DNA from: Nemertoderma westbladi
Taxonomy: Eukaryota > Animalia > Xenacoelomorpha
NCBI GenBank assembly: GCA_032718475.1
Contig: JAUCBJ010001772.1
Location: forward strand, 1-64,000
Length of the DNA stretch: 64,000 nucleotides
Reading direction: 5' to 3'
A model generated the notes under the pieces. It ran no database searches. It saw nothing but the letters and a program-made list of their open reading frames with translations, and had not been told where the DNA came from. Both the position numbers and the translations under genes were made by a program. Shown piece after piece: positions 16,501-59,397 of the stretch. Position 1 is the stretch's first letter. Each line of letters begins with the position of its first letter.

Positions 16501-19500
16501 TTCACAACATTTTCACAATTTCAGTTGTTTTCAGCAGCTTTTTCTTTTGAAAGGGTTTGCGGAAAAATATCAATTTTCGGGCCATTTTTGGAAATTACTA
16601 AAATGTGCCTTAGGGCCACCAGAGGCTTAATCCGGCACTGGTAGCTTATGAAACTTATATATTTCTTTTTATAGGTAGCCATGACTACGACTCAGTCCGT
16701 CCTTTGGCTTACCACGACACCCACGTCATTATATTATGTTATGACGTCACCCATCCGGATTCATTGGCAGCTTGTGAATATAGGGTGAGAGTCAAAATCT
16801 GTTATATATACCGTAATGGTTGGACGATGCTTTCCGAGGCGTCATGGTTACAATCGTGATTGATAAGTGCGGGAGTAAGGGTCTATGCCTCGATACCAAC
16901 AAATATAAATATTAAATTAATTATTATTTCCAATACGCATTTCGGGCGTCACATCCGTCTTCAGGGCTAATTAAAAACAAAAAAGAACAAATTTAAATAA
17001 AATAATCATAATTTACTACAATATAGTACGATTATAAACTATCTATTTTACATATTATATTGTCGTAAATCATTTTATTTAAATTTCGGGCGTGACGCCC
17101 GAAATGCGTATTGGAAATAATAATTAATTTAAAATTTATATTTTTTGGTATCGAGGCATATATAGACCCTTACTCCCGCACTTATCATTCACGATTGTTT
17201 CAAAGTTTGTTTTTGAAGATACGTGGCGCAAATAGCAAGTGAAAAATGTGTTACATATGAAATAAAGTTTCATTTGTTGCTTTGGTTAGAAAACACCGCC
17301 GCTGTAACCTGCTCTTTTCCCTTAATGATTTCATTTAAATTAATTTAAACCTCCCGAACACTTACCATTAATTAATTAATTATTTATTTGTAGTGCCAAT
17401 AAAGTCACTAATATCAAACATTTATATCACATGTTTTTTTTCAATGTAATTGAACTACTACTGGGTCGAGCGAACTCAGACATTGGAAATGAGATCCTTC
17501 CAGGCTTCCCGATTATTCGTTTCTCTCAAATGATTTCGTTTCTCTCAAGTTCAGTATCCATTTCAAGCTGGTCTATATCGGCGTTTGTCATGTGTTGTCT
17601 CCAGCTGATGTTTAGGGCTGCCCTTAGTAGTCTTGTGTAGCAACCATCAATTCGATGTTCAAGTGATTTAGTCAGTGTCCAGGTCTCACCCCCGTATAAA
17701 AATACACTTTCCACTGTGGCTCGAAAGAACTTAGTCTTCAGGTGCCTGGAGAGATCTGATTTCCAGATGGTATCCATTTTTGATAGAGCTACCCAAGCCT
17801 TTGCTTTCCTAACTTCTATGTCCTTTTTGCTACTCTCTATCCATGATCCAAGGTACTGGAAGTCGTCAACCTTCCTTAGTTGATTATTATCAATGGTTGT
17901 CAAGTTTCCATCAACATTAAAGGTCATGAATTCGGTCTTTGTAGCATTTATATGCAATCCAACGTCCTTAGCAGCCCTCTCTACTTTATTTAGTAGAAGC
18001 TGTGCATCTGCTAGCGTATTAGAGAGCAGGGCGATGTCATCCGCAAAGTCGGTGTCTGTGACTGTAGTTTCGGATATCTACTACTTCTGAGTTTTTGTAG
18101 TGTGAATCCAAGTTGTTCTCCATTTGTAGCCATCCTCATTTCATAATCTAATACGATTATGAATAGTAATGGCGCCAATGTGTCCCTTACCTTGCAATAC
18201 TCCAGCCAGGATGGAGAATAACTCAGTTTAAGTTTAAAGCAGCAATAGAAACAGTAAGTCTATAATGAACTCTAAAAACTGCATAGGACACCAAATCTCT
18301 GGATGGCACATTCACAAGAATGCTACGTCGGGTTCATTGTGTCAAGTACAATGCACACATCTCCAACCAGACACTATATAACATTGGAGGTGTCTCATTG
18401 GTTCCCCCAAGCTTGACACTAGAACAAAATCGCCTCCGCTTTGCAGGACATTGCTTTCGCCGTGAGGACCAGCCAGTGCATAATCTTGTACTTTGGCAGC
18501 CTCATGGAGTGAATAAGCATGGTGTACAGCCCATGACTTTCTTGAGACGCATCTTAAAGGACACTGGCCTTGAAAATGCGGATGATCTAGCAAATGTCAA
18601 GGGTGATAGGGAGTTGTGGCGGCGCAATTTTCACGATAAGCTGGCATCACATTCTTAATGCACGCTGCATTACTGCATGCCGATTTTGGCATTATAGTGG
18701 TGGCACAAATTTATTGTTATTCAGATAAAATTCATTTGACATTCGCAAGTTCGAGGTGATCGAATTTGTATATGTATACCCAACATTTTAATATAATATA
18801 GGCTGTCACATGTTTAAATCGTTGAAACCCCAAGTTGACAATGTTTATAAAAATATATGGAACGAAAATAGAACCACAAATCGGCCAATGTGAAGTATAC
18901 CAGGCTTTCTGGTGTTATATTTCACTTTGCAGTTTACCGGTTACCCGGTGTAATTTTATTAAATTTCGGTCGGATTTGTTTTAGTGGTACGAAGAGATTC
19001 GTCAGTATTGTCCCAATGTTCCGATAGTTCTAGTCGGTTGTAAATCAGATTTAAAATCGGACAGAAGAACAGTCGAGTCTTTGGTGAAAAACGGCCAACT
19101 GCCAACATCGGCCAGTCAGGTGAGTCGGGTGGGACCTACCATCGGTGAGGATTAGCCAATCAGGTGAGTCGGGTGGGACCTACCATCGGTGAGGATTAGC
19201 CAATCAGGTGAGACGGGTGGGACCTACCATCGGTGAGGATTAGCCAATCAGATGAGACGGGTGGGACCTACCATCGGTGAGGATTAGCCAGTCAGCATGC
19301 GGGTGTGGTGGTCAGCAGTTCTGATTCTGTGCAGGGATGGCATAACGAAACTAAAAAAATACATACAAATAAAAATAACGAAACGAAACGAAATAATAAG
19401 TGTTTCGATTCGTTTCGTGTTTCGTTAATTAAAAAAGTAATTAATCATAACGATATAAATTTATTAATATATTTAAATAATTAAAAAGTTATAAATAATA

Positions 19501-20935
19501 ATAATAATGATATTCTCCTTAATTGCTGTAATGTAAACAGAGTAAATTATTTCCTTCAATAAAGCAACCTTTATTACCAAGCAGTTTCCGTTATCATTGT
19601 AATGCAACAGTCTAGGGCGGACTACAGTAGAACTGTAATAAGGTACTAAAGGCAATACTGTACTGATAGTAAATTAGTACATACAATAAAACAACTGGTA
19701 TACCTGGCATTTCACCTGCCGGGACATTACGAATGTTACCCCTATAGTGTATGAAACTCAAAAGGGGAATACTGCAAAACGTTTGGGGAGGGGGGGGGGG
19801 GGGGTGGTCAACACCGGACCGGTTCTACATTTTACTACAATATCATGGTGTTGATAAAGGGGCGGTTATATTTAAAACTTTTATTTGATAAAATCAAAAA
19901 TTTTAGAAGAAAACGAGACGAAACGAAAAACGAATTTAAAGTCTATGAAACGAAACGAAAATTTATAGATTGATACAAAACGAAACGAGTATTTGATCGG
20001 ATTTGTAAAAACGAAACGAAATTGAAATTTCTTTCGTTTCGTTTCGTTTCGTTTTGCCATCCCTGATTCTGATTTGGTAGTCGGACAATTTAATAGTTTT
20101 GAACACTAAATATCAATCTATAGAGCATTTCACCAAATATCTGTCTGTCCGTTTCAAGGTATCTTAAGAACGGCTGAACCGATTGCCTCAATTTTTGTCA
20201 AATTGTTGTAAATTCAATGAGTCACCATCGGACCTCTGCGCCTCCGTTACCTCTGGAGTCCGTATTAACTTTCGCACTGAATGCGTTGGATGGTGACTCA
20301 TACAAAAAATACCTTGAAACGGACAGACGGACGGACAGACAGGCAGACAGACATTTGGTGAATATATTTGGCTCTATAAATTGATATTTAGTGTTCAAAA
20401 CTATTAAAATGTCCGTCTACAAAATTTCGATGTGTTTTTATAAAAATTAAAGTTTGTATAGCATTTTACATGGACGCGCACATGTTTTTTTGACAACCCA
20501 ATATTTTAATAAATTTTCAACGTCATTTTCATATTCGAACAAAATAATTATAATTATATTTATATTTATGCTTTTATTTTTCGTACACGCATGGTGTTAT
20601 TGTTTATTTTATTTCAATAGATATATTTACCGGTAAATAAATATTCTTCCATGCAGGGTATGCAGACTGGTATTCGAGTGAAGGCGACAGTGGCCCTAGA
20701 ATGTTCCGCCATGACCGACAGTGACTCAGTAGACTCGGTATTTAGATGGGCTGCCCTCTCTGCGATCGGCCAGAAACACAGTCTGAAGAACGCCGAGTGC
20801 TCATTGCCAAGACGACGCTATTCCTTGCGAAGGTCTCCCGTAGTAACAAACTATCAGGGGATTGGTGACGTCCCAAAGAGAAAAGCCGCGACCACAGAGG
20901 ACATCAAGAAGTCGTCGTCCTGTGTCCTGCAATAA
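13591..20935 (+). CDS. Rnd-like atypical Rho-family GTPase; exons 13591-13701, 14462-14549, 16675-16784, 18985-19119, 20657-20935; 240 aa
   Basis: Spliced reading frame: P-loop GEEGSGKT, effector loop YAPTMFE, G3 WDNSGS, YDSVRPLAY, G4 LVGCKSDL, G5 ECSA and C-terminal CAAX CVLQ. All introns are GT-AG with compatible phases (0,1,0,0). Confidence 0.88.
13795..14416. mobile_element. Palindromic MITE-like sequences in Rnd intron 1
   Basis: Inverted pairs: ~13797-13840 with ~13895-13937; TTTTATTCCAAAATT (~13940) with AATTTTGGAATAAAA (~14401); central palindrome ~14196-14285. Confidence 0.5.
14720..16640. mobile_element. Non-autonomous hAT-type element (1.9 kb) in Rnd intron 2
   Basis: Terminal inverted repeats CAGTGCCGGATTAA ... 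TTAATCCGGCACTG. 8-bp flanks GTAGCTTG / GTAGCTTA (7/8 identical). Subterminal GTGCCTTAGGGCC at both ends. Confidence 0.88.
16850..17197. mobile_element. Long foldback element (~100-bp arms plus inner inverted segments), possibly Penelope-terminal-derived
   Basis: ACAATCGTGA..GATAAGTGCGGGAGTAAGGGTCTAT...TTTCGGGCGTCAC pairs with GTGACGCCCGAAA...ATAGACCCTTACTCCCGCACTTATC..TCACGATTGT. Confidence 0.75.
17560..18226 (-). mobile_element. Degenerate non-LTR retrotransposon (RTE-like) reverse transcriptase fragment
   Basis: Frameshifted translation gives ILAGVLQG.DTLAPLLFIIVLD, DFADDIALLS, GLHINATKTEFM, FQYLGSWI and LYGGETWTLTK. Confidence 0.9.
18240..18658 (+). mobile_element. RTE-like LINE 3' fragment, in opposite orientation to its neighbour
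   Basis: DGTFTRMLRR...RLRFAGHCFRREDQPVHNLVLWQP...DRELWR is a typical RTE C-terminus. Confidence 0.8.
19120..19295 (+). repeat. 4 x 44-bp tandem repeat of the Rnd exon-4/intron-4 donor junction
   Basis: Unit GTGAGTCGGGTGGGACCTACCATCGGTGAGGATTAGCCAATCAG. Its 3' end copies the exon end GCCAGTCAG. Confidence 0.9.
19332..20065. mobile_element. hAT-type MITE with (ACGAA)n subterminal repeats
   Basis: Terminal inverted repeats CAGGGATGGCA ... TGCCATCCCTG. Flanks ATTCTGTG / ATTCTGAT (6/8 identical). AAACG arrays near both ends. Confidence 0.8.
20077..20420. mobile_element. Palindromic MITE with a GACA microsatellite
   Basis: TTAATAGTTTTGAACACTAAATATCAAT pairs with ATTGATATTTAGTGTTCAAAACTATTAA, and there are inner inverted segments. 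Confidence 0.75.
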
Positions 20936-21521
20936 TTCTGTACCGGTAACGGTAATAGGCCTCTATCTCAATATAAACATGTTTTAATTAATTTTTAAAT
21001 TCATTTTGTGCAAATTTTGATATGAATGTCAATAGAAAAGATTTTTTACAATAAATTCCCTGTTTCACCAACAGATTAATTATTATTAACATCCACGATC
21101 ACCGACACAACCCCGTGAGAGCGACATCTGGGAGGGAGGGGACTTTCTAGGCTCGACGCAATACAAATTTATCCCCTCCAGGGTAAAATCGACGGAAATA
21201 ACAGCTGATTACTCCCAAAAATAAAACTGTATAACCTGTTCTACATTTCCAGCCAATTTTGAATCTTACCATGGCCTACTTAAATATTTAAGTAGGCCAT
21301 GATCTTACCTTCTGCAAAATTATACTGCCTATACATTTATTTAACTTATTGCTATCAGCTTATTGTTTGATTTGATTGATTGATTGGTGAGCTCGTGTAT
21401 TTGCTTAATAATATACACCCCCCCCCCCCCCCCCCCCCCCCACCGTTGGTACACCATTTTGGTCCAAAATATGTCGAAATTATTTTTATGATCTATTATA
21501 ATGCACGATTAATCAGAAAAC

Positions 21522-21750
21522 CGCTCAATAGCTCAGTTAGTTGAGCGGCGGGCCTGCAATCTATTGGTTGTAGGTTCAGCCCCGCCAGGGTCCACTCAGC
21601 CTTTCATCAACTGGGATCGATAAAATGAGTACCAGTTAAATAACTGGGAGCAAAACTTGGGATAGGAGTAGCGCCCACCCCTACCCTCGGGTAGCAGCTA
21701 TCGAGAGAGGAGCCTTTGGGTGGCCTCCGGCTTCGGCCGACTGTTTGCTT
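21522..21750 (+). mobile_element. tRNA-derived SINE (family B)
   Basis: A box TAGCTCAGTTAG and B-box-like GGTTCAGCCCC. Central CCACTCAGCCTTTCATC..GATAAAATGAGTACCAG resembles conserved SINE central domains (recalled, not searched). The 3' tail is shared with 59398-59623. Confidence 0.8.
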
Positions 21751-22276
21751 GATATATAATGAAAGGTCGATTATCTCCAAATATTTTTTTTATGAAATTG
21801 TCAACTTCAAATCCCTACTACTTTTACAATTTTTGAGCAATTTGTCTGAAACAATCCGGTGGGTGTCTACATAGCCACCCTGCATAAAAGTAGCAGACAA
21901 CTTTTCGAAATTTTATGTTAATAAAATTTAATACTATTTATACTGTAACAAACCTTAATTTGCAGCGCCACCTAGCGGTGCCGAATTATTTTCACAAAAT
22001 TTCGCCTGATAGTTATGTTGCCCCTTCTTTGATCTATCATATAAAAAAACTTTCATGTGATTCGATTCAAAACTGTAAAAGCCTTAGGGTTTTAAGCGCA
22101 ACCAAGTTTTTTTTATTGTTAACTAGTATTAACTAATATTAAATAGCGAAAAAAAAATTTTTCTGACCTGTCATGTAGAATAGCATCTTAGGCACCTATA
22201 TTCCAAATTTTAGCCAAAACCAAACAATTTTGAAACGCTGAGAGTGATAAATCGAAGAGTTGTCCGAAAATGTTGT

Positions 22277-22312
<36 letters not shown>

Positions 22313-22693
22313 CGTACCTATTAATAATGGAACTAGACTCTACCCTTCTGTAAATCCAACTTCGCCTGGTAATCCACACTTACAAAGCATCGCTTGTGCG
22401 CATGGGAGGATCCCAAGATCAAGTATTTTGGAGAAAATACATTTAATTTAATTTATGTTGCTTTCATTATAAATATACGAACAGGTAAAAGTTTCAAACA
22501 TAGAAATTAATGACGGTTATGACACGAGTTGTTGTCTTATATTTAAATTATTATATATCTATTTTAATTATATATTTATTCTGAGTTGTAAGAGTCGATG
22601 ACGATTCGTTTACATCTGCGTTTAAATTGAACCAATTGTACTGACATATTCTAGGTTTTCGTATTTATTATGATGTAAGATTTTCAGATAGGG

Positions 22694-23446
22694 CACAGTG
22701 CGTTTTAACCAACTTTTAGTCGAAAAAAAAATACCCATCTCCAATTTTTTTTTCAAAATTATAAATTATTATAATTATATTAATAATATTATAAAACTTT
22801 AAAAAAATTACCCTACCCATTCCTAATTTTCGATTTATTTGCAGTCTGCATGATGTATTAGTTTAAATTTAGCTTGAACTAACATATTTCATCGGGCTAT
22901 TGGCCTTCAATACACAGTAAGTAAATGGCTCATATTGAAATACGTAGCCGTAAAGAGAATTATTTTACATTCCGCCTAAAATATTACTTCTAATGATCCC
23001 ACAGACTCAAACATAGTTCCATTCGAATCGCAATCATTTAGTTGGAGTAAAAACCATCAGAATAAGACTAGGGCGCTTAGTTCTCGAGATATTGTAGAAA
23101 AGGTGTACTTTAGGCTTACTATGCGCCTTTTGTACACACAACTCTATATACACCTTTTGTGAAATATCTTGAGAATTAACCGCTCTACTCTTTTTTTGGA
23201 GGTTTCTTCCGCAACTAAATCGATGATTGCGGTTCGAATGGAACTATGTTAGATTCTGTGGGATCAATAGAACATTATTACTGAAATTTATTAGTAATTT
23301 ATTTATTACTTATTTGTTACTGAAAATAATACCTACAGACTCAAAAAATTGTTTTTTCTGAAATAACTAGTGGATGTGGTTGTTATGAAAAAAAAATTGG
23401 AGATGGGTATTTTTTTTCTACTAAAAGTTGGTTAAAACGCACTGTG
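22694..23446. mobile_element. Non-autonomous DNA transposon with CACAGTG termini (Chapaev/Transib-like)
   Basis: ~55-bp terminal inverted repeats: CACAGTGCGTTTTAACCAACTTTTAGT...TACCCATCTCCAATTTTTTTTTCA. Flanks AGGG / AGGT. Large internal palindrome at ~22995-23265. Confidence 0.8.
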
Positions 23447-23454
23447 AGGTGGAA

Positions 23455-23610
23455 AACTGGACGCAATAAAAATTCATCCCTCTCCAGGGGAAATTGGACG
23501 CAAATAACAGATGATTATTCTCAAAAATAAAACTGTAACCTGTTCTATTGTGTTTAGTTTATTGGTTAAAATAACGTGTCACTGTAACCTGTTCCATTCC
23601 CTAAATTGAG
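23455..23610 (+). repeat. Dispersed repeat (family C)
   Basis: GATTACTCCCAAAAATAAAACTGTAACCTGTTCTA is shared with ~21155-21243 and ~42596-42700. Confidence 0.65.
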
Positions 23611-24088
23611 AATTTAACATTGAGGCGGGATTATTAATTCGCAAAGGCGGGTTTGGCGTCCTGTTTCACCCCCTGTTTCAAGATATTTGGGGTTCATTCT
23701 TCCTTCAAAACATCAAAGTAAACAGTTTGGCAACGATAGGCACTCAGAGACTGGCCATGACGATATTGGTTGTATCCGAAATACAGTTAGTATCCAAACT
23801 TTGAAAACTACAGTAATTAGGCCAATTTAATGTTCATGTTTACCAATAATTTTATTTTAATCAGATATAATTAGTCAATAACGCAGCACCGCAGCACTGG
23901 TAGCGACCTATTTAAAACCAAAGGACGGACACAATTAATACGGGTTATACAAAATAATGATAACAGTACAAATTAAAAGAGTTTGTAGGTAATAATAATT
24001 AATAGTTTCACATTATCTAATCAATAAAGATGTTCCTTTTTCTCTGCATCAATGATCATATTTGGTTGATAGTTTATATGGATTCCTC

Positions 24089-27000
24089 TCACATCGCGCT
24101 CACTGGTTGGTAGTGTTCCACACGGTCTAATAGTTCATCCGAATATCCAGGGGTGTAGTACCTAATTAATAAATAAATTAATATTACCAAATAAATAAAT
24201 AGTACCAAAATAAATAAATATTTACCAAAATAAATAAATAAAGTAGTACCAAAATAAATAAATAAATATTTACCGTAATATATAATAAATAGTTACCAAA
24301 ATAAACAAATATATACGTAGTACCAAAATATATAATTAAATAGTACCAAAAAAATAAATGAATTAGTCCGGAGTATTATCTAAAAAATTAATAAAAATAA
24401 ATAGTATCGAATATGGAATAATACCAACTGAACACTAGGTCTATTATCTATAAGTTCTATCTATTATTTATAAGTATACATTATCTATGGTCTATAAGCT
24501 TTATTATTAGTAATTATTTATAGCGGTGATGCACTACAACTCTACTCACTTGACTATCTCCTCTGGGTAGCAGTTATTTATAGCAGTGATGTACTACAAC
24601 TCTACTCACTTGACTATCTCCTCCGGGTAGCAGTTATTTATATCAGTGATGCACTACAACTCTACTCACTTGACTATCTCCTCCGGGTAGCAGTTATTTA
24701 TATCAGTGATGCACTACAACTCTACTCATTGACTATCTCCTCTGGGTAGCAGTTATTTATAGCAGTGATGCACTAAACTCTACTCACTTGACTATCTCCT
24801 CCGGGTAGCAGTTATTTATATCAGTGATGCACTACAACTCTACTCACTTGACTATCTCCTCTGGGTAGCAGTTATTTATATCAGTGATGCACTACAACTC
24901 TACTCACTTGACTATCTCCTCCGGGTAGCAGATATTTATATCAGTGATGCACTACAACTCTACTCACTTGACTATCTCCTCCGGGTAGCAGTTATTTATA
25001 TCAGTGATGCACTACAACTCTACTCACTTGACTATCTCCTCCGGGTAGCAGATATTTATATCAGTGATGCACTACAACTCTACTCACTTGACTATCTCCT
25101 CTGGGTAGCAGTTATTTATAGCAGTGATGCACTACAACTCTACTCACTTGACTATCTCCTCTGGGTAGCAGTTATTTATATCAGTGATGCACTACAACTC
25201 TACTCACTTGACTATCTCCTCTGGGTAGCAGTTATTTATATCAGTGATGCACTACAACTCTACTCACTTGACTATCTCCTCCGGGTAGCAGATATTTATA
25301 TCAGTGATGCACTAAACTCTACTCACTTGACTATCTCCTCCGGGTAGCAGTTATTTATATCAGTGATGCACTACAACTCTACTCACTTGACTATCTCCTC
25401 TGGGTAGCAGTTATTTATAGCAGTGATGCACTACAACTCTACTCACTTGACTATCTCCTCTGGGTAGCAGTTATTTATATCAGTGATGCACTAAACTCTA
25501 CTCACTTGACTATCTCCTCCGGGTAGCAGTTATTTATATCAGTGATGCACTACAACTCTACTCACTTGACTATCTCCTCTGGGTAGCAGTTATTTATATC
25601 AGTGATGCACTACAACTCTACTCACTTGACTATCTCCTCTCGGGTAGCAGTTATTTATAGCAGTGATGCACTACAACTCTACTCACTTGACTATCTCCTC
25701 CGGGTAGCAGATATTTATATCAGTGATGTACTACAACTCTACTCACTTGACTATCTCCTCCGGGTAGCAGTTATTTATATCAGTGATGCACTACAACTCT
25801 ACTCACTTGACTATCTCCTCCTGGGTAGCAGTTATTTATAGCAGTGATGCACTACAACTCTACTCACTTGACTATCTCCTCCGGGTAGCAGATATTTATA
25901 TCAGTGATGTACTACAACTCTACTCACTTGACTATCTCCTCTGGGTAGCAGTTATTTATAGCAGTGATGCACTACAACTCTACTCACTTGACTATCTCCT
26001 CCTGGGTAGCAGTTATTTATATCAGTGATGCACTACAACTCTACTCACTTGACTATCTCCTCCTGGGTAGCAGTTATTTATAGCAGTGATGCACTACAAC
26101 TCTACTCACTTGACTATCTCCTCTGGGTAGCAGTTATTTATATCAGTGATGCACTACAACTCTACTCACTTGACTATCTCCTCCGGGTAGCAGTTATTTA
26201 TATCAGTGATGCACTACAACTCTACTCACTTGACTATCTCCTCTGGGTAGCAGTTATTTATATCAGTGATGCACTACAACTCTACTCACTTGACTATCTC
26301 CTCCGGGTAGCAGTTATTTATATCAGTGATGCACTACAACTCTACTCACTTGACTATCTCCTCTGGGTAGCAGTTATTTATAGCAGTGATGCACTAAACT
26401 CTACTCACTTGACTATCTCCTCCGGGTAGCAGTTATTTATATCAGTGATGCACTACAACTCTACTCACTTGACTATCTCCTCTGGGTAGCAGTTATTTAT
26501 AGCAGTGATGCACTACAACTCTACTCACTTGACTATCTCCTCTGGGTAGCAGTTATTTATAGCAGTGATGCACTACAACTCTACTCACTTGACTATCTCC
26601 TCCGGGTAGCAGATATTTATATCAGTGATGTACTACAACTCTACTCACTTGACTATCTCCTCCGGGTAGCAGTTATTTATATCAGTGATGTACTACAACT
26701 CTACTCATTGACTATCTCCTCTGGGTAGCAGTTATTTATAGCAGTGATGCACTACAACTCTACTCACTTGACTATCTCCTCCGGGTAGCAGATATTTATA
26801 TCAGTGATGTACTACAACTCTACTCACTTGACTATCTCCTCCGGGTAGCAGTTATTTATATCAGTGATGTACTACAACTCTACTCACTTGACTATCTCCT
26901 CTGGGTAGCAGTTATTTATATCAGTGATGCACTAAACGCTACTCACTTGACTATCTCCTCCGGGTAGCAGTTATTTATATCAGTGATGCACTACAACTCT

Positions 27001-30000
27001 ACTCACTTGACTATCTCCTCTACTGGGTAGCAGTTATTTATAGCAGTGATGCACTACAACTCTACTCACTTGACTATCTCCTCCGGGTAGCAGATATTTA
27101 TATCAGTGATGCACTACAACTCTACTCACTTGACTATCTCCTCTACTGGGTAGCAGTTATTTATAGCAGTGATGTACTACAACTCTACTCACTTGACTAT
27201 CTCCTCTGGGTAGCAGTTATTTATAGCAGTGATGTACTACAACTCTACTCACTTGACTATCTCCTCTGGGTAGCAGTTATTTATATCAGTGATGCACTAC
27301 AACTCTACTCACTTGACTATCTCCTCTGGGTAGCAGTTATTTATAGCAGTGATGCACTAAACTCTACTCACTTGACTATCTCCTCTGGGTAGCAGTTATT
27401 TATATCAGTGATGCACTAAACGCTACTCACTTGACTATCTCCTCCGGGTAGCAGTTATTTATATCAGTGATGCACTACAACTCTACTCACTTGACTATCT
27501 CCTCTGGGTAGCAGTTATTTATAGCAGTGATGTACTACAACTCTACTCACTTGACTATCTCCTCTGGGTAGCAGTTATTTATATCAGTGATGCACTAAAC
27601 GCTACTCACTTGACTATCTCCTCCGGGTAGCAGTTATTTATATCAGTGATGCACTACAACTCTACTCACTTGACTATCTCCTCTGGGTAGCAGTTATTTA
27701 TATCAGTGATGTACTACAACTCTACTCATTGACTATCTCCTCCGGGTAGCAGTTATTTATATCAGTGATGCACTACAACTCTACTCACTTGACTATCTCC
27801 TCTACTGGGTAGCAGTTATTTATAGCAGTGATGCACTACAACTCTACTCACTTGACTATCTCCTCCGGGTAGCAGATATTTATATCAGTGATGTACTACA
27901 ACTCTACTCATTGACTATCTCCTCCGGGTAGCAGTTATTTATATCAGTGATGCACTACAACTCTACTCACTTGACTATCTCCTCTACTGGGTAGCAGTTA
28001 TTTATAGCAGTGATGCACTACAACTCTACTCACTTGACTATCTCCTCCGGGTAGCAGATATTTATATCAGTGATGTACTACAACTCTACTCACTTGACTA
28101 TCTCCTCTGGGTAGCAGTTATTTATATCAGTGATGTACTACAACTCTACTCATTGACTATCTCCTCCGGGTAGCAGTTATTTATATCAGTGATGCACTAC
28201 AACTCTACTCACTTGACTATCTCCTCTACTGGGTAGCAGTTATTTATAGCAGTGATGCACTACAACTCTACTCACTTGACTATCTCCTCCGGGTAGCAGA
28301 TATTTATATCAGTGATGTACTACAACTCTACTCACTTGACTATCTCCTCTGGGTAGCAGTTATTTATAGCAGTGATGCACTAAACTCTACTCACTTGACT
28401 ATCTCCTCTGGGTAGCAGTTATTTATATCAGTGATGTACTACAACTCTACTCATTGACTATCTCCTCCGGGTAGCAGTTATTTATATCAGTGATGCACTA
28501 CAACTCTACTCACTTGACTATCTCCTCTACTGGGTAGCAGTTATTTATAGCAGTGATGCACTACAACTCTACTCACTTGACTATCTCCTCCGGGTAGCAG
28601 ATATTTATATCAGTGATGTACTACAACTCTACTCACTTGACTATCTCCTCTGGGTAGCAGTTATTTATATCAGTGATGTACTACAACTCTACTCATTGAC
28701 TATCTCCTCCGGGTAGCAGTTATTTATATCAGTGATGCACTACAACTCTACTCACTTGACTATCTCCTCTACTGGGTAGCAGTTATTTATAGCAGTGATG
28801 CACTACAACTCTACTCACTTGACTATCTCCTCCGGGTAGCAGATATTTATATCAGTGATGTACTACAACTCTACTCACTTGACTATCTCCTCTGGGTAGC
28901 AGTTATTTATAGCAGTGATGCACTAAACTCTACTCACTTGACTATCTCCTCCGGGTAGCAGATATTTATATCAGTGATGTACTACAACTCTACTCACTTG
29001 ACTATCTCCTCTGGGTAGCAGTTATTTATAGCAGTGATGCACTACAACTCTACTCACTTGACTATCTCCTCTACTGGGTAGCAGTTATTTATAGCAGTGA
29101 TGCACTACAACTCTACTCACTTGACTATCTCCTCCGGGTAGCAGATATTTATATCAGTGATGTACTACAACTCTACTCACTTGACTATCTCCTCTGGGTA
29201 GCAGTTATTTATAGCAGTGATGCACTACAACTCTACTCACTTGACTATCTCCTCCGGGTAGCAGTTATTTATATCAGTGATGTACTACAACTCTACTCAC
29301 TTGACTATCTCCTCTGGGTAGCAGTTATTTATATCAGTGATGCACTACAACTCTACTCACTTGACTATCTCCTCTGGGTAGCAGTTATTTATAGCAGTGA
29401 TGCACTAAACTCTACTCACTTGACTATCTCCTCTGGGTAGCAGTTATTTATATCAGTGATGCACTAAACGCTACTCACTTGACTATCTCCTCCGGGTAGC
29501 AGTTATTTATATCAGTGATGCACTACAACTCTACTCACTTGACTATCTCCTCTGGGTAGCAGTTATTTATAGCAGTGATGTACTACAACTCTACTCACTT
29601 GACTATATCCTCTGGGTAGCAGATATTTATATCAGTGATGTACTAAACTCTACTCACTTGACTATATCCTCTGGGTAGCAGATATTTATATCAGTGATGT
29701 ACTACAACTCTACTCACTTGACTATCTCCTCTGGGTAGCAGTTATTTATAGCAGTGATGTACTACAACTCTACTCACTTGACTATCTCCTCTACTGGGTA
29801 GCAGTTATTTATAGCAGTGATGCACTACAACTCTACTCACTTGACTATCTCCTCCGGGTAGCAGATATTTATATCAGTGATGTACTACAACTCTACTCAC
29901 TTGACTATCTCCTCTGGGTAGCAGTTATTTATATCAGTGATGTACTACAACTCTACTCATTGACTATCTCCTCCGGGTAGCAGTTATTTATATCAGTGAT

Positions 30001-33000: not shown

Positions 33001-36000
33001 ACAACTCTACTCACTTGACTATCTCCTCTGGGTAGCAGATATTTATATCAGTGATGTACTACAACTCTACTCACTTGACTATCTCCTCTGGGTAGCAGTT
33101 ATTTATAGCAGTGATGCACTACAACTCTACTCACTTGACTATCTCCTCTGGGTAGCAGTTATTTATATCAGTGATGCACTACAACTCTACTCACTTGACT
33201 ATCTCCTCTGGGTAGCAGTTATTTATATCAGTGATGCACTAAACTCTACTCACTTGACTATCTCCTCTGGGTAGCAGTTATTTATATCAGTGATGTACTA
33301 CAACTCTACTCACTTGACTATCTCCTCTGGGTAGCAGTTATTTATATCAGTGATGCACTAAACGCTACTCACTTGACTATCTCCTCCGGGTAGCAGTTAT
33401 TTATATCAGTGATGCACTACAACTCTACTCACTTGACTATCTCCTCTGGGTAGCAGTTATTTATAGCAGTGATGCACTACAACTCTACTCACTTGACTAT
33501 CTCCTCTGGGTAGCAGTTATTTATATCAGTGATGCACTACAACTCTACTCACTTGACTATCTCCTCTGGGTAGCAGTTATTTATAGCAGTGATGCACTAC
33601 AACTCTACTCACTTGACTATCTCCTCTGGGTAGCAGTTATTTATATCAGTGATGCACTACAACTCTACTCACTTGACTATCTCCTCTACTGGGTAGCAGT
33701 TATTTATAGCAGTGATGTACTACAACTCTACTCACTTGACTATCTCCTCTGGGTAGCAGTTATTTATATCAGTGATGCACTAAACTCTACTCATTGACTA
33801 TCTCCTCTGGGTAGCAGTTATTTATATCAGTGATGCACTACAACTCTACTCACTTGACTATCTCCTCTGGGTAGCAGTTATTTATAGCAGTGATGCACTA
33901 CAACTCTACTCACTTGACTATCTCCTCTGGGTAGCAGTTATTTATATCAGTGATGCACTAAACTCTACTCATTGACTATCTCCTCTGGGTAGCGATTATT
34001 TATATCAGTGATGCACTACAACTCTACTCACTTGACTATCTCCTCTGGGTAGCAGTTATTTATAGCAGTGATGCACTACAACTCTACTCACTTGACTATC
34101 TCCTCTGGGTAGCAGTTATTTATATCAGTGATGCACTACAACTCTACTCACTTGACTATCTCCTCTGGGTAGCAGTTATTTATATCAGTGATGCACTAAA
34201 CTCTACTCACTTGACTATCTCCTCTGGGTAGCAGTTATTTATATCAGTGATGCACTACAACTCTACTCACTTGACTATCTCCTCTGGGTAGCAGTTATTT
34301 ATAGCAGTGATGCACTACAACTCTACTCACTTGACTATCTCCTCTGGGTAGCAGTTATTTATATCAGTGATGCACTACAACTCTACTCACTTGACTATCT
34401 CCTCCGGGTAGCAGTTACTTATATCAGTGATGCACTACAACTCTACTCACTTGACTATCTCCTCTGGGTAGCAGTTATTTATAGCAGTGATGCACTACAA
34501 CTCTACTCACTTGACTATCTCCTCTGGGTAGCAGTTATTTATAGCAGTGATGCACTACAACTCTACTCACTTGACTATCTCCTCTGGGTAGCAGTTATTT
34601 ATATCAGTGATGCACTACAACTCTACTCACTTGACTATCTCCTCTGGGTAGCAGTTATTTATAGCAGTGATGTACTCAGCCAGAGCGCTCCCCGGCTCAG
34701 AGTTGATTTCCTGGACTTTCTTCAGACCCCCGCTGGTAACAAATAGCCGTCTCGCCTTTGGATCGTGTGGCAATACCTGCATTTATTATTATATAAGGGT
34801 GAGTTTTACATCTATAATAAATTTTTGTGAGACGAAGTTCTAGTGGGACATGGTTTCCTCGTGTTTCGCGCTGTTATGTACAGACAGACCGTTCTATATA
34901 ATGTATTGTGTGTCAGGTAATCATCTGGGGTGAGCCACGCACCTTGCTGAACTGTGCGACAACGTGTTTGAGTATATTAGGAGGGGCGTCCCGTAACAAT
35001 GGCTCCAGAGAAGGTAAGTGGACGCACTTCTGTAAAATATTCTTCAACGCCGTCTTTGACTTCTCCTATAAAACATACAAATACATATGTAGCAACAATT
35101 TAATTATTATTCTATTTTATGAACTATATTGAAAGAATAGGAATAAAATACAATTTCCATTAATTTAATTGCTCATTACTTTTCTAGGTAAAGAAAATTC
35201 GTGTTGTAACAGTTAAGGATTTTATTGAATTCATTTTAAGGGATTTTAATATTCGCTGCTTTCAAACTACTCATAAATTTACGACTGAAAATTATAGAGA
35301 TTTGATGCAAACGATTTTTTAAGCATACATAATTGCACAGCAGACAAACCCATATAAATAATACCATGTAAGGCAGCTAGTTGAGTTAAAGCAGTAAGCA
35401 TTGTCGTCAGCGAATGACAACAGATTATTCTAAAAATGGAAAATATAAAAAAAAATTAAAATAGAAAACTAACTACAGTTTCTAACAATCTGGCGCATTT
35501 TAATTAAAAAAAAAAAAAAAAAAACACGGGACGTTATAGGAACCCTGTCGTTAGAGCCTCGGTTTTTCAATCGGAAGGTGGTGATTTCGAGTCCCACCAT
35601 GGAGCAGTTAACTATAAGGAACTAGCTTCAGCCTCCCTAGCTGTGGTGGCTGGAATATGTTAGGGGAGTAAAAAATTGTTACATAATGAGAGTATTGGAC
35701 CTTGGGAGTTGGTGTGGCACCATCCCTGCCTTACAGGTATCGGCCAAGAGAGAGGAGTTTATGTGTTTCAGTTCACCAATAACTATACGTTACTGGTTGC
35801 CAAGTAACCTAGACGGGTTGCTTAGCGACCTACCTGCAGATCCTCCGATGCGTCCGCCCGTAGGTAGCACGCCAGTAACCTAGGCAACACGTTAGCGGCG
35901 GCCACGGCCTTGGCGTGTTCCGGAGTATGGCGACCGATCTGTCCGAGCCCCCAAGCGGCCGATCCCTGAACATGGTCTTCAGTCTCCTCCATTAGGGTAA

Positions 36001-39000
36001 TGGCGAGTTGTTGGACGCCCTGGAAATGATTTCACATTGCAAATAACCAAAACAATAAACACCATCGACCTTACATATTAGCAAACTTACCTTCGATAAA
36101 ATAAACTTACCTTAGATACAATAAACTAACCCTAGATACAATAAACTTACCTTAGATACAATAAACTTACCTTAGATACAATAAACTTACCATAGAATAA
36201 ATAAACTTACCTTAGATACAATAAACTTACCTTAGATACAATAAACTTACCTTAGATACAATAAACGTACCTTAGATACAATAAACTTACCTTAGATACA
36301 ATAAACTTACCTTAGATACAATAAACTTACCTTAGATACAATAAACTTACCTTAGATACAATAAACTTACCTTAGATACAATAAACTTACCTTAGATACA
36401 ATAAACTTACCTAGATACAATAAACTTACCTTAGATACAATAAACTTACCTTAGATACAATAAACTTACCGTAGATACAATAAACTTACCTTAGATACAA
36501 TAAACTTACCTTAGATACAATAAACTTACTTTAGATACAATAAACTTACCTTGGATAAAATAAACTTACCTTAGATACAATAAAGTTACCTTAGATACAA
36601 TAAACTTACCTTAGATACAATAAACTTACCTTAGATACAATAAACTTACCTTAGATACAATAAACTTACTTTAGATACAATAACCTTACCTTAGATACAA
36701 TAAACTTACCCTAGATACAATAAAGTTACCTTAGATACAATAAACTTACCTTAGATACAATAAACTTACCTTAGATACAATAAACTTACCTTAGATACAA
36801 TAAACTTACTTTAGATACAATAAACTTACCTTAGATACAATAAACTTACCTTAGATACAATAAACTTACCTTAGATACAATAAACTTACCTTAGATACAA
36901 TAAACTTACATTAGATACAATAAACTTAACTTAGATACAATAAACTTACCTTAGATACAATAACTTACCTTAGATACAATAAACTTACCTTAGATACAAT
37001 AACTTACCTTAGATACAATAAACTTACCATAGAATGAATAAACTTACCTTAGATACAATAAACTTACCTTAGATACAATAACTTACCTTAGATACAATAA
37101 ACTTACCATAGAATGAATAAACTTACCTTAGATACAATAAACTTACCTTAGATACAATAAACCTCCCATAGAATAAATAAACTTACCTTAGATACAATAA
37201 ACTTACCTTAGATACAATAAACTTACCATCGAATAAATAAACTTACCTTAGATACAATAAACTTACCATAGAATAAATAAACTTACCTTAGATACAATAA
37301 ACTTACCTTAGATACAATAAACTTACCTTAGATACAATAAACTTACCTTAGATACAATAACTTACCTTAGATACAATAAACTTACTTTAGATACAATAAA
37401 CTTACCTTAGATACAATAAACTTACCTTAGATACAATAAACTTACCTTAGATACAATAAACTTACCTTAGATACAATAAACTTACATTAGATACAATAAA
37501 CTTACCTTAGATACAATAAACTTACCTTAGATACAATAACTTACCTTAGATACAATAAACTTACCTTAGATACAATAACTTACCATAGAATCAATAAACT
37601 TACCTTAGATACAATAAACTCACCTTAGATACAATAACTTACCTTAGATACAATAAACTTACCATAGAATGAATAAACTTACCTTAGATACAATAAACTT
37701 ACCTTAGATACAATAAACTTACCATAGAATAAATAAACTTACCTTAGATACAATAAACTTACCATAGAATAAATAAACTTACCTTAGATACAATAAACTT
37801 ACCTTAGATACAATAAACTTACTTTAGATACAATAAACTTACCCTAGATACAATAAAGTTACCTTAGATACAATAAACTTACCTTAGATACAATAAACTT
37901 ACCCTAGATACAATAAAGTTACCTTAGATACAATAACTTACCTTAGATACAATAAACTTACCATAGAATGAATAAACTTACCTTAGATACAATAAACTTA
38001 CCTTAGATACAATAAACTTACCTTAGATACAATAAACGTACCTTAGATACAATAAACTTACGATAGAATAAATAAACTTACCTTAGATACAATAAACTTA
38101 CCTTAGATACAATTAACTTACCTTAGATACAATAAACTTACCTTAGAGAAAATAAACTTACCTTGATATACAATAAACTTACCTTAGATACAATAAACGT
38201 ACCTTAGATACAATAAAGTTACCTTAGATACAATAAACTTACCTTAGATACAATAAACTTACCCTAGATACAATAAAGTTACCTTAGATACAATAACTTA
38301 CCTTAGATACAATAAACTTACCATAGAATGAATAAACTTACCTTAGATACAATAAACTTACCTTAGATACAATAAACTTACCTTAGATACAATAAACGTA
38401 CCTTAGATACAATAAACTTACGATAGAATAAATAAACTTACCTTAGATACAATAAACTTACCTTAGATACAATTAACTTACCTTAGATACAATAAACTTA
38501 CCTTAGAGAAAATAAACTTACCTTGATATACAATAAACTTACCTTAGATACAATAAACGTACCTTAGATACAATAAACTTACCTTAGATACAATAAACTT
38601 ACCTTAGATACAATAAACTTACCTTAGATACAATAAACTTACCCTAGATACAATAAACTTACCTTAGATACAATAAACTTACCTTAGATACAATAAACGT
38701 ACCTTAGATACAATAAACTTACCATAGAATAAATAAACTTACCTTAGATACAATAAACTTACCTTTACAATTAACTTACCTTAGATACAATAAACGTACC
38801 TTAGATACAATAAACTTACCATAGAATAAATAAACTTACCTTAGATGCAATAAACTTACCTTAGATACAATTAACTTACCTTAGATACAATAAACTTACC
38901 TTAGAGACAATAAACTTACCTTGAGATACAATAAACTTTCCTTAGATACAATAAACTTACCATAGAATAAATAAACTTACCTTAGATACAATAAACTTAC

Positions 39001-42000
39001 CATAGAATAAATAAACTTACCTTAGATACAATAAACTTACCATAGAATAAATAAACTTACCTTAGATACAATAAACTTACCATAGAATAAATAAACTTAC
39101 CTGAGATACAATAAACTTACCTTAGATACAATAAACTTACATTAGATACAATAAACTTACCTTAGATACAATAAACTTACCATAGAATAAATAAACTTAC
39201 CTTAGATACAATAAACTTACCATAGAATAAATAAACTTACCTTAGATACAATAAACTTACCTTAGATACAATAAACTTACATTAGATACAATAAACTTAC
39301 CTTAGATACAATAAACTTACCATAGAATAAATAAACTTACCTTAGATACAATAAACTTACCATAGAATAAATAAACTTACCTTAGATACAATAAACTTAC
39401 CTTAGATACAATAAACTTACCTTAGATACAATAAACTTACCTTAGATACAATAAACTTACTTTAGATACAATAAACTTACCCTAGATACAATAAAGTTAC
39501 CTTAGATACAATAAACTTACCTTAGATACAATAAACTTACCCTAGATACAATAAAGTTACCTTAGATACAATAACTTACCTTAGATACAATAAACTTACC
39601 TTATATACAATAAACTTACCTTAGATACAATAAACGTACCTTAGATACAATTAACTTACCTTAGATACAATAAACTTACCCTAGATACAATAAAGTTACC
39701 TTAGATACAATAACTTACCTTAGATACAATAAACTTACCTTGGATACAATAAACTTACCTTTGATACAATAAACTTACCTTAGATACAATAAACTTACCA
39801 CAGAATAAATAAACTTACCACAGAATAAATAAACTTACCTTAGATACAATTAACTTACCTTAGATACAATAAACTTACCATAGAATAAATAAACTTACCT
39901 TAGATACAATAAACTTACCATAGAATAAATAAACTTACTATTAGATACAATAAACTTACCTTAGATACAATAAACTTACCTTAGATACAATTAACTTACC
40001 TTAGATACAATAAACTTACCTTAGATACAATTAACTTACCTTAGATACAATAAACTTACCATAGAATAAATAAACTTACCTTAGATACAATAAACTTACC
40101 ATAGAATAAATAAACTTACTTTTAGATACAATAAACTTACCTTAGATACAATTAACTTACCTTAGATACAATTAACTTACCTTAGATACAATAAACTTAC
40201 CTTAGAGACAATAAACTTACCTTGAGATACAATAAACTTACCTTAGATACAATAAACTTACCATAGAATAAATAAACTTACCTTAGATACAATAAACTTA
40301 CCTTAGATACAATAAACTTACCTTAGATACAATAAACTTACCTTAGATACAATAAACTTACCTTAGAATAAATAAACTTACCTTAGATACAATAAACTTA
40401 CCTTGGATACAATAAACTTACCTTTGATACAATAAACTTACCTTAGATACAATAAACTTACCACAGAATAAATAAACTTACCACAGAATAAATAAACTTA
40501 CCACAGAATAAATAAACTTACCTTAGATACAATAAACTTACCTTAGATACAATTAACTTACTTTAGATACAATAAACTTACCTTAGAGACAATAAACTTA
40601 CCTTGAGATACAATAAACTTACCTTAGATACAATAAACTTACCATAGAATAAATAAACTTACCTTAGATACAATAAACTTACCTTAGATACAATAAACTT
40701 ACCTTAGATACAATAAACTTACCTTAGATACAATAAACTTACCTTAGATACAATAAACTTACCTTAGATACAATAAACTTACCTTAGATACAATAAACTT
40801 ACCTTAGAAACAATAAACGTACCTTAGATACAATAAACTTACCATAGAATAAATAAACTTACCTTAGATACAATAAACTTACCTTAGATACAATAAACTT
40901 ACCTTAGATACAATAAACTTACCATAGAATAAATAAACTTACCTTAGATACAATAAACTTACCATAGAATAAATAAACTTACCTTAGATACAATAAACTT
41001 ACCTTAGATACAATAAACTTACCTTAGATACAATTAACTTACCTTAGATACAATAAACTTACCTTAGATACAATAAACTTACCCTAGATACAATAAAGTT
41101 ACCTTAGATACAATAAACTTACCTTAGATACAATACACTTACCATAGATACAATAAATTACCTTAGATTCAATAAACTTACTTTAGATACAATAACAGCC
41201 ATGGATAGATTCTCAGAGTGAGCGGCTACGTATCCTAGCAACATGACTCCCGGCAACCTTACGTTGCCCTTGGTGTCTCCTATGAAGTCTACGATAGCGG
41301 CCACCCCTCCCGCGTTAACGACTAGTTGGGCCAACTCCGGTGTGTGTTTAGCAATCTCTCGGATGAGCGTAGCGACGTTCTTCTTAACGTAGTCGTCCGG
41401 GTCTCTCAGACAGGTCAGTACGGCCGGGAAGATCTCGGCCTCCACCACCATCTCGGCTAGGTCTACCGAATGTTTGGCGATCTGCGACAGCGCTGAGAAA
41501 ACTTGGCGCTGAAATGGGAGACAGAAATATTAACGGATTAGAGGATATGGAGACTTAATATATTATCAACACATATGAGAGTTTCGGTGGTAAACTATTA
41601 ATTGCAATGAGTAAATTAGGACGTATTTATTAGTTATACTGTAGGTGTATAAAGTTAAAGTTCATAAATAACATAAAGTAATTTTCTTTATTGTTTGTCA
41701 ATTTATTCAGAATGTTAATTAATCAATTTCTCAAGTAAATAATATAGAAAACAAATAGCATTTTTCCTTACGATGCCTCGAAGTATAATTAACTTCGATC
41801 GTTACGCTCGCGTAGCAGAAGCTGCGGGAATATCAGCCATTCTAAGGAAAATAAGTTCCCTTTATTTCACTTCCTTCCATATATTTCTAGGAAAGTCCAA
41901 TAATACTTATTCCTGAATCATCGCTTATAAAATAATATATATTATTAATATTAATATTATAGTACGGAATAATATTATTAAGATACAACGATTAGGCCTA

Positions 42001-44081
42001 CACAGTGAAACATAATTACAAAACGCTTCTCATGAAAAAGTAATTAATTATCTTACATTAAATAAATAATCGATATTTTTTATTCATATTATTAGAATTA
42101 TTATAAGCCAACGTTTATCTTACTTCAATATTACAAATATTTGTGCAGCATCACGCCTTTACTGCGATTAAGTAGATGTACTTAGGACTAAGTTAAGTTA
42201 AATACGAAATCTGGTTAATAATATAAATTAGATTTCGTTTTTCTACTAGTTTGCCAACCTTTAGCTTTTCGTCGTTATTCAATATCATCTGGGCGAGATG
42301 GGCGACCGCGCCCGCGTCCACCACGGTCTGGGCGAGTTCGGGCGAATGTTTCGCTATATCGCTCACGCTGCTCGCTGCGATCCTCTTCAACCCCAACTCC
42401 GGTTCCTGGATACACAACACTAACAGCGGCACGGCGCCGGCGTCCACTACAGCCTGGGCCAGTTCCGCGTTGTGTCTGGAAAGAAATACAAACTCAAATA
42501 AATTTTAACAAATATTGTATTGAAACGTAATTAAATTATAGTGGAGTTATTCAATAACTATTTAATAATATCTGTTAATTAAGATTGCCTTTAAGATTGA
42601 TTACTCCCAAAAATAAAACTGTAACCTGTTCTATTGACTTCAGTTTCTAGTTTTGGATAAAATAACGTGCCACTGTAACCTGCTCCCTTCCTTCCCTATT
42701 GGTATCTAACTTTGAGACGAGAAATGAATTCGCCGAGATGGGATTTGATTGGGGGTTGATGGTAACTTAGAAACACACTACTTACCTAGCGACGTAACCT
42801 AGTAACGGACAACTTACCTAGCACGTAACCTAGTTACAGACAACTTACCTAGCGACGTAACCTAGTTACAGACAACTTATCTAGCGACGTAACCTAGTTA
42901 CAGACAACTTACCTAGCGACGTAACCTAGTAACAGACAACTTACCTAGCGACGTAACCTAGTAACAGACAACTTACCTAGCACGTAACCTAGTTACAGAC
43001 AACTTACCTAGCGACGTAACCTAGTTACAGACAACTTACCTAGCGACGTAACCCAAAGCCCATGCGGCGGACTCCTTAACCGAAGGATCGAATTCTTCCA
43101 GACATATAACCAAGGCGTCCAGAGCCCCGCAGTCCACCACTGATTGGGCCAACTCCGGACTGTGTCGCGCCACCGCGCGGAGAACAAACGCAGCCGCTTT
43201 CTTATAGAATCGCTATGAATCGAAAAAAATGAGTTACTAATAAAATAAAGCAGTACTTTATAGCACGGTAACGGGATATAAACAACAACTTTTTACAACA
43301 GTAATTATGATACTAAGTTGCGAAATTAATTAAATAAATAAAAGTTACAATATAATACGTTAACAAAAAGTAAGTTAAGTTATATAATTACACCGATTTG
43401 CAATATTTAAATCCAAATATAATAGGTATAATAGTTAAAACAAATGACTTACATTTTGTTCGGCCAACGAGTAAACTAATTGAGGTAAAATATCACCCTT
43501 GACTACAGCTTCGGCGAGATCGTCGTTGTGATTGGCTAGACGTCCCAATGCGAGGGCAGCCGTCTGCTGTATGGTTGGCACGATGTCCAATAGGAGAGGC
43601 CGAAGTAATGACATGACCCCGGCATTCTGTAGAGTTTCGATATTCTGGGGTCGGGTCGCCAATTCAGCGACCGTTTGTACGAATGTTGTCCGCGCTTTCT
43701 GGTATTCCTCAAACGCTGCGTGTTGGAAGGAATAGTATATATTGTGTTAGACCTAGGAATTTTAAATGTACTAAATAACTATTAGCATTGGATTAAAATT
43801 GAAAACAGATTAAATATAGAAAATTAGAAATTTGACTGAAACGAAAGAGAACGATTTAAATGGAAGACAGAGAAAAGAGAATAGCTGGAATTACAGTCTT
43901 AGTACGAAATAAATCAATGCTAAATCTACCAAAACAACAACAACTGGTGAACTAAATAATTACCAATCGATTTAATGACACTAATGAGGTCTGTCAGTGT
44001 AGTTAATATGTAATAATTATTACCTTTAATTATTGGTCGATCTTTCTTTTTAAGTTCAAAATCCCCCCTTGGAACTTCCAT
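24089..44081 (-). CDS. SPAG6: Sperm-associated antigen 6 (PF16, armadillo-repeat central-pair axonemal protein); exons 44024-44081, 43453-43715, 43040-43212, 42259-42475, 41182-41508, 35834-36019, 34943-35065, 34631-34776, 24089-24161; 521 aa
   Basis: Spliced translation MEVP..RPIIKAFEEYQKARTTFVQTVAELATRPQNIETLQNAGVMSLLRPLLLD...LAEQN|RFYKKAAAFVLRAV...MAVIVSK|GVQQL...CYPEEIVK|YYTPGYSDELLDRVEHYQPVSAM* is collinear with SPAG6. All introns are GT-AG and phase-compatible; the CDS totals 1566 nt. Confidence 0.96.
24162..24362 (-). repeat. Degenerate ~20-25-bp repeats resembling the SPAG6 terminal-exon acceptor junction
   Basis: Minus-strand TATTTATTTATTTTGGTA(CTAC) about 8 times, against the true acceptor TTTATTTATTAATTAG|GTACTAC. 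Confidence 0.65.
24514..34675 (-). repeat. 60-bp tandem array (~170 copies): last 44 nt of SPAG6 exon 8 plus first 16 nt of intron 8
   Basis: Minus-strand unit T(A/G)CATCACTG(C/A)TATAAATAACTGCTACCC(A/G)GAGGAGATAGTCAA|GTGAGTAGAGTTGTAG. The exonic part encodes YITAINNCYPEEIV and is continuous with the true exon. Confidence 0.97.
35540..35760 (+). mobile_element. Probable tRNA-derived SINE in SPAG6 intron 6
   Basis: GTCGTTAGAGCC...GATTTCGAGTCCCACC has A/B-box-like spacing; diverged. Confidence 0.45.
35796..35888. promoter_or_regulatory. Cluster of three RFX X-box motifs at SPAG6 exon 6/intron 6
   Basis: GTTGCC-A-AGTAAC (35796-35808), GTTGCT-T-AGCGAC (35817-35829) and GTAACC-TA-GGCAAC (35875-35888) fit GTNRCY(N1-2)RGYAAC on one strand or the other. 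Confidence 0.5.
36083..41194 (-). repeat. 20-bp tandem array (~255 copies) of the SPAG6 exon-5 donor junction
   Basis: Minus-strand unit ATTGTATCTAAG|GTAAGTTT, against the true junction ATTGTATCTAAA|GTAAGTTT. A variant unit reads ATTTATTCTATG|GTAAGTTT. Confidence 0.97.
42781..43053 (-). repeat. 32-bp tandem array (8 extra copies) of the SPAG6 exon-3 donor junction
   Basis: Minus-strand unit GGTTACGTCGCTAG|GTAAGTTGTCTGTAACTA. The exonic part encodes GYVAR. Confidence 0.95.
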
Positions 44082-59350: not shown

Positions 59351-59397
59351 GATTCCACCTTTCCGGGTTACGGAAAGGTTAAATCTAACCAAAACAA

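Follow-up and report, generated by a model that had tools for sequence, protein, structure and literature searches.

Tandem copies of an exon-intron boundary, at either a donor (5' splice site) or an acceptor (3' splice site), are known from lancelets as 'mirages' and have been described in Adh3, the globins BflGb6 and BflGb9, troponin C and PGBD5 (Ebner et al. 2010, PMC3087553; PMC3902484). Splicing of these genes is reported as normal, the splice signal is kept in many but not all copies, and the units at the edges escape homogenisation. Adh3 mirage units measure 10-72 bp, copy numbers are 3 and 6 in BflGb6 and 2-7 in PGBD5, and PGBD5 carries two arrays in one gene (PMC3087553, PMC3902484). 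Length instability between alleles or cells is counted among their defining features, and the origin of mirages is stated to be unclear (PMC3087553). Here we describe four arrays that span donors of SPAG6 and of a Ras-family GTPase gene in a stretch of 64,000 nucleotides (nt) from Nemertoderma westbladi (contig JAUCBJ010001772.1, positions 1 to 64,000; hereafter the window).

Donor-spanning variable number tandem repeats (VNTRs) are also found in human genes, including F7 (intervening sequence 7, IVS7; 37 bp x 5-9), CBS (IVS13, 15-20), 6-16 (25 pseudo-sites), LMNB2 (100 bp x 10-15) and PDGF (intron 4, 81 bp x 16-18) (Borensztajn et al. 2006, PMC1557585). In F7 minigenes the most upstream of identical donors wins; a further trait of F7-type VNTRs is that later sites function once the first donor is mutated, and in F7 pseudo-sites with a perfect consensus partly drew splicing. 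The most upstream site is used in F7, LMNB2 and PDGF; in CBS and 6-16 splicing extends to the following two sites as well (PMC1557585). In human segmental duplications, minisatellite-sized internal tandem repeats overlap exon-intron boundaries, altering gene structure and in some cases creating introns (De Grassi and Ciccarelli 2009, PMC2812944). No genome-wide count of mirages was found in full-text searches of open-access papers, and the part of a study of splicing quantitative trait locus repeats that we draw on holds no count of donor-spanning arrays (PMC10078293). The N. westbladi arrays belong to this known kind, the lancelet mirages and the human donor-spanning minisatellites, and are unusual mainly in size and density.

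Four arrays span splice donors

Arrays were located with Tandem Repeats Finder (TRF; 52 rows), and all coordinates are those of the window. Four TRF arrays lie over donors:

19111-19295, plus strand: 44-bp x 4.2 array over the exon-4 donor (after 19119) of the Ras-family GTPase gene
24514-34676, minus strand: 60-bp x 169.4 array over the SPAG6 exon-8 donor (after 34631)
36083-41195, minus strand: 20-bp x 256.1 array over the SPAG6 exon-5 donor (after 41182)
42762-43053, minus strand: 32-bp x 9.2 array over the SPAG6 exon-3 donor (after 43040)

Their host genes were reconstructed as follows:

24089-45697, minus strand: SPAG6 coding span, exons 1-3 at 45697-45673, 43715-43453 and 43212-43040
42475-42259, 41508-41182 and 36019-35834, minus strand: SPAG6 exons 4-6
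35065-34943, 34776-34631 and 24161-24089, minus strand: SPAG6 exons 7-9
13591-13701, 14462-14549, 16675-16784, 18985-19119 and 20657-20935, plus strand: Ras-family GTPase gene (Pfam Ras), 240 amino acids (aa)

When SPAG6 exons 2-9 are joined at the array donors they encode 501 aa, which can be aligned gap-free to named SPAG6 proteins at 88% identity. Identity to many invertebrate phyla is 87-89%, with an unreliable placement of the protein in a tree, and exon 5 alone matches named SPAG6 proteins. Exon 1 was placed solely by its likeness to homologue N-termini. For the GTPase gene, the exon 3/4 and 4/5 junctions are present in spliced contigs; it is presumably of the Rho/Rnd type.

A sequence-only reading of this stretch had described four arrays of unrelated sequence, each beginning exactly at a true donor. 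The first part holds, with blastn of the four units against the rest of the window returning no match. The second holds in that one true donor lies inside each array (4/4), but all four start 9-46 nt within the exon and then run across the donor. As in lancelet mirages, the unit thus spans the exon-intron boundary; the 44-mer, for instance, joins 9 nt of exon end to 35 nt of intron. Within the 44-mer (19120-19163), an inner 22-bp period (TRF, 56% matches) carries a second donor-like word and perhaps reflects an older duplication of the same donor.

Counting the true donor, intact donors are present in 158/169 units of the 60-mer (GTGAGT), 230/256 of the 20-mer (GTAAGT), 7/8 of the 32-mer (GTAAGT) and 2/4 of the 44-mer (GTGAGT). 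The signal is therefore kept in many but not all copies, again as in lancelets, and the description of the SPAG6 copies as nearly all keeping GTAAGT or GTGAGT is borne out. On the plus strand, opposite SPAG6, the 20-mer array (36083-41195) contains AATAAA 230 times.

The three SPAG6 arrays sum to 15,568 bp, or 72% of the 21,609-bp coding span. This agrees with the earlier figure of about 15.5 kb of array, while the 20 kb given for the gene falls short of the span that includes exon 1 (45697-45673). Likewise, four coding donors are affected as stated, but the total of 16 donors should read 13 secure and 2 unconfirmed. Three of the eight SPAG6 donors lie in arrays, and without them the three introns would measure about 350, 60 and 290 nt. 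The BflGb6 and PGBD5 mirages of lancelets have 2-7 copies, in contrast to the 169 and 256 copies of the 60-mer and 20-mer arrays, whose copy numbers and 10- and 5-kb sizes are as assembled. Occupation of 72% of a coding span, in another invertebrate, likewise sets this locus apart from the lancelet cases, and the human VNTRs occur as one array per gene with about ten times fewer copies. Size and density here exceed those of the published cases compared.

Short-read contigs reach the arrays

Short-read contigs from runs X1 and X2 (DNA, two studies), X4 and X5 were compared with the window over 41200-43800 and 18700-24400; X1 may be the source of the assembly. A 62-nt X2 contig consists of two 32-mer units without a mismatch, and X1 contigs enter the 32-mer array from both sides, with depth rising from 40-45 outside to 62-156 inside. 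X2 has no cover at 42766-42939, and no conclusion was drawn from this gap. At the 44-mer array an X1 contig spans the first two units and an X2 contig stops within the first. X1 and X2 contigs end 33 and 94 letters past 41200, inside the first units of the 20-mer array. At the far end of the 60-mer array, an X1 contig reaches in for about 40 nt before it stops. Distinct unit variants, 33 and 43 in number, recur in ordered patterns. Because short-read contigs of two studies reach the units and the unit variants recur in order, we conclude that the arrays exist.

First-donor use in assembled transcripts

Runs X4 and X5 are labelled 'DNA?'; we take them to derive from RNA solely on the strength of contigs that are confined to exons and joined at GT..AG. 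At the 32-mer array, an X4 contig has the joint 42475/43040, which is the first donor. At the 44-mer array, contigs of both X4 and X5 have the joint 19116/20654 (GT..AG at cut +3), again the first donor, 19119. The long arrays were judged by record coordinates, with records of equal length and depth in both compared regions taken as one. In a 2266-nt X4 record, 41508 falls on letter 1174 and 24161 on letter 1956; the gap between them, 782, is the sum 327+186+123+146 of exons 5+6+7+8. In a 1315-nt X5 record, 24161 falls on letter 426 and 41200 on letter 900, and here the gap, 474, is the sum 146+123+186+19. Since both gaps match the exon sums exactly, the transcripts contain no extra 20-mer or 60-mer. 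At all four arrays, the donor chosen in the assembled transcripts is thus the first. Regular splicing is undisturbed, as in lancelet mirages, with rare variants invisible in contigs, and the mRNA and protein are unchanged, unlike the altered gene structures described for the repeats of De Grassi and Ciccarelli.

Every later donor tested gave a premature stop, at aa 145, 333 or 341, and 478 of 501 in SPAG6 and at aa 159 of 240 in the GTPase. An in-frame ladder of isoforms was ruled out on this ground for the four arrays.

The 20-mer array presents the splicing machinery with a demanding choice. The true donor is AAA/GTAAGT (slash, splice position), whereas 168 later copies match MAG/GTRAGT and 158/255 later copies beat the true donor in U1 score. 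The copy nearest the true donor is weakened, and the first perfect copy lies 59 nt downstream. The AG/GT motif, which recursive splicing would use as a ratchet point, occurs in the 20-, 32- and 44-mer units and in 0 of the 60-mer units. As in F7-type VNTRs, the first unit spans the donor, further copies of the donor follow within the intron, and it is the most upstream that is selected. Unlike F7, where perfect-consensus sites partly drew splicing, here the assembled transcript takes the weaker true donor in preference to 168 copies of perfect consensus spread across 5 kb, which makes the array a stringent natural test of the rule that the first donor wins. Use of the next two sites, as in CBS and 6-16, was not seen, though contigs miss rare forms.

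Arrays of the window are in excess at donors

For the enrichment analysis, eight clean arrays were kept by hand from the 52 TRF rows (period at least 15, about 3 or more copies, at least 85% matches). Overlapping rows, microsatellites and AT-rich degenerate arrays, 24164-24363 among them, were left out, and each array was collapsed to one unit for the expectation. Donors are covered by four of the eight, against 0.12-0.16 expected, and acceptors by none. The excess has P = 2e-6 with 12 donors (without exon 1), 7e-6 with 16 donors and 4e-5 with 25 junctions. All four of the clean arrays that lie inside genes cover a donor.

No splice site was found at any of the other four arrays (440-888, 8781-9185, 57754-59358 and 60002-64000). 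The last of these is a 59-bp array with 99% matches and at least 68 copies that runs off the window, and no exon or dispersed relative of it was found; read on the minus strand, its unit contains a pyrimidine-rich stretch with TAG at the end, and the array could thus cover the acceptor of a gene lying beyond the window. The unit of the 54-bp x 28 array (57754-59358) belongs to a dispersed repeat also seen at 11198-11245 and 18891-18938; as a piece of that repeat it was ruled out as a donor copy. At 8781-9337, a 15-bp x 27 array directly follows a WD40 gene and is succeeded by inverted copies of the 15-bp unit, an arrangement that looks transposon-associated.

Probable and possible decayed copies at other SPAG6 junctions

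Two further SPAG6 junctions have features that resemble older arrays:

24164-24363, minus strand: decayed AT-rich array of 8 copies, 18-27 nt apart, before the last acceptor
35790-35833, minus strand: exon-6 donor likeness, the intron start resembling the exon end over 13-14 nt

At the acceptor, the junction letters G/GTA(CTA) recur, with G/GTA in 8 copies, a match to 7 letters in 4 and 8 letters in 2; the 7-mer appears in 0/156 cross pairs. AG is kept in 0/8 copies, T or C standing at the position of the acceptor's A in 8/8, and the resulting AG-free run is 216 nt compared with 15-50 nt at the other 12 acceptors. From these letters, the tract is likely an old acceptor mirage. Its lack of AG fits a filter imposed by splicing, under which a donor copy further downstream does no harm but an AG copy further upstream does.

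A search for decayed duplications covered 12 donors and 14 acceptor positions (one misplaced, in the NHL-repeat gene listed below), with p values from shuffling. It gave p < 0.01 at the 32-, 20- and 60-mer donors and at the SPAG6 exon-6 donor. The 44-mer donor, where the exon part is only 9 nt, gave p 0.34, and three further donors and all 14 acceptor positions were negative. For the exon-6 donor the shuffle p is 0.007 uncorrected and about 0.07 over 11 non-array donors, and 1/210 cross pairs scored as high, making 35790-35833 a possible, weak candidate for a decayed donor mirage. This tract also has short words in common with the 32-mer unit.

Neighbouring genes and repeats

Two other genes in the window were placed:

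47069-48097, minus strand: NHL-repeat gene, with candidate upstream exons at 51547-51805 and 52279-52586, one of which has a short coding repeat
3770-5110, plus strand: glycosylated lysosomal membrane protein gene, single exon, 446 aa, nearest matches 23-29% identical

A very high-copy dispersed element occurs at 42598-42691, 21100-21200 and 23460-23630. In the DNA runs its summed contig depth is above 100,000 at 42592-42678 and 23475-23665.

Origin of the units

The longest match of any unit to the next exon is 4-7 nt, from which we conclude that the units are not derived from mRNA and are genomic duplications; an mRNA-templated origin was ruled out, the units lacking next-exon sequence. Three arrays have short direct repeats at both ends, measuring 9 nt (44-mer), about 5 nt (32-mer) and about 20 nt (60-mer), a pattern that slippage or microhomology repair would be expected to leave. 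No inverted-repeat signal of template switching was seen at the donors below p 0.08.

The long arrays contain exact block duplications, one of 34 units in the 60-mer, where shuffling gave at most 5, and one of 17 units, where it gave at most 11. The last unit is diverged in the 20-mer and 32-mer arrays, and the 44-mer array has a shared internal variant. Collectively, this concerted evolution resembles that of lancelet mirages, and the block duplications and diverged end units would fit unequal exchange with exclusion of the edges.

Discussion

The sequence-only reading had offered two explanations, a mutational process at splice junctions or arrays with a function. We favour the mutational one over all rivals, with a probability of about 0.7: the arrays would be neutral, junction-spanning duplications. 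This is supported by the excess at donors in the window, by units that are plain genomic duplications without next-exon sequence, and by the block duplications in the long arrays. Under this model, a genomic piece of 20-60 bp spanning a real 5' splice site would be duplicated in tandem; slippage or break repair at short direct repeats is the likely seed, and unequal exchange the likely means of amplification. Splicing at the first donor, as in the assembled transcripts, keeps the extra copies in the intron and leaves the exon intact, and the copies would drift as neutral minisatellite DNA. Splicing likely also filters which junction duplications survive. Later donor copies would be ignored and may keep their GT, while earlier acceptor copies would be chosen by splicing and so survive only without AG. 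This filter alone fails to explain why all four genic arrays lie on donors; seed formation is therefore probably biased towards exon ends in this lineage. An R-loop or a paused polymerase, as put forward in the sequence-only reading, would be candidate triggers.

Several observations weigh against this model or limit the tests behind it. The enrichment comes from one window, chosen after the fact for looking odd. The 20-nt end repeat of the 60-mer array exceeds what chance microhomology would provide and calls for either a previous duplication or subsequent trimming. Contigs drop rare forms, so that minor use of later donors would escape them. The acceptor remnant is a single case whose junction letters would occur there at all with a chance of 0.06 (7-mer) to 0.008 (8-mer); one of the other 12 acceptors has its own 7-mer by chance, and the local-alignment test did not flag the last SPAG6 acceptor (p 0.39). 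Neutrality of the donor letters is also challenged by variation weighted by copy, which in both long arrays is about half as high at +1..+6 as at the other positions (0.011 vs 0.026; 0.025 vs 0.045), and by the 20-mer donor window, for which only 2/20 rotations are lower in variation.

Counted instead as distinct variant alleles, the donor letters show no constraint. There are 15 alleles at +1..+6 against 13.4 expected and 6 at GT against 4.5. Eleven copies of the 60-mer have lost G+1 by deletion, the other three arrays each have a single copy with G+1 altered, and the donor 6-mer is the least variable window in none of the four. The prediction that positions +1 to +6 would vary less than the rest of the unit thus found no support, in a test of low power (56 alleles in total, from copies that are not independent).

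An alternative that we consider unlikely is that duplications arise anywhere and that only units with a U1 site can reach kilobases in a transcribed intron. U1 binding would protect a long repeat from early termination or silencing, and donors would be the readiest source of such units. U1 does protect long introns, and all four clean genic arrays carry donors, with GTRAGT kept in 158/169 and 231/256 units. Sense AATAAA is in no unit consensus, the 20-mer having its 230 copies on the other strand, and weak selection on single units would slip past the allele test. Against such a growth filter, the two small arrays (4 and 9 copies) also lie at donors, where no protection is needed, and donor-killing variants have spread to 11 copies.

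A selected function, with the arrays acting as U1 landing pads, transcription timers, recursive-splicing steps or a dial for nonsense-mediated decay in a ciliary and sperm gene, is very unlikely. Sperm genes of flies have long satellite-filled introns, a precedent that joins the presence of three arrays in one gene and of 169 AG/GTRAGT motifs in the 20-mer array as grounds for it. The functional half of the earlier reading was not upheld, however: donor positions are unconserved, all later donors tested lead to premature stops and assembled transcripts take the first. Moreover, the four units are unrelated and of very different sizes, and one array sits in the unrelated GTPase gene.

We give a similarly low weight to a chance cluster, in which the genome is rich in minisatellites, donor-spanning arrays are merely tolerated and the window is an extreme draw. 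The window was picked out of a very large scan and holds four more clean arrays away from splice sites, but an excess with P between 2e-6 and 4e-5 within the window, together with the acceptor remnant and possible donor remnant in SPAG6, is poorly accounted for by such a draw. Mis-joining of long reads as the source of the arrays, or of much of their length, is highly unlikely. The lengths are those of the assembly, and a mis-join could account for the exact duplication of 34 units (about 2 kb) in the 60-mer array. Against this, the 33 and 43 unit variants form ordered recurring patterns, and among the short-read DNA contigs, which come from two studies, some contain two 32-mer units and others break off within the arrays' first units.

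Taken singly, these arrays are ordinary mirages. Gene predictors can be misled by arrays of this sort, and short-read assemblies can break at them. The presence of three donor arrays and an acceptor remnant in one gene suggests a genome that could allow a direct measurement of junction-biased seeding. We tentatively raise the further possibility, at less than even odds, that a splicing-coupled mutational process in this lineage seeds exon-end duplications in germline-expressed genes genome-wide, with their amplification as a main driver of intron length and with splicing as an asymmetric filter by which GT is kept and AG is lost. If seeding is indeed coupled to splicing, this genome would offer a system for mapping how mirages arise and for large-scale tests of their still unexplained origin.

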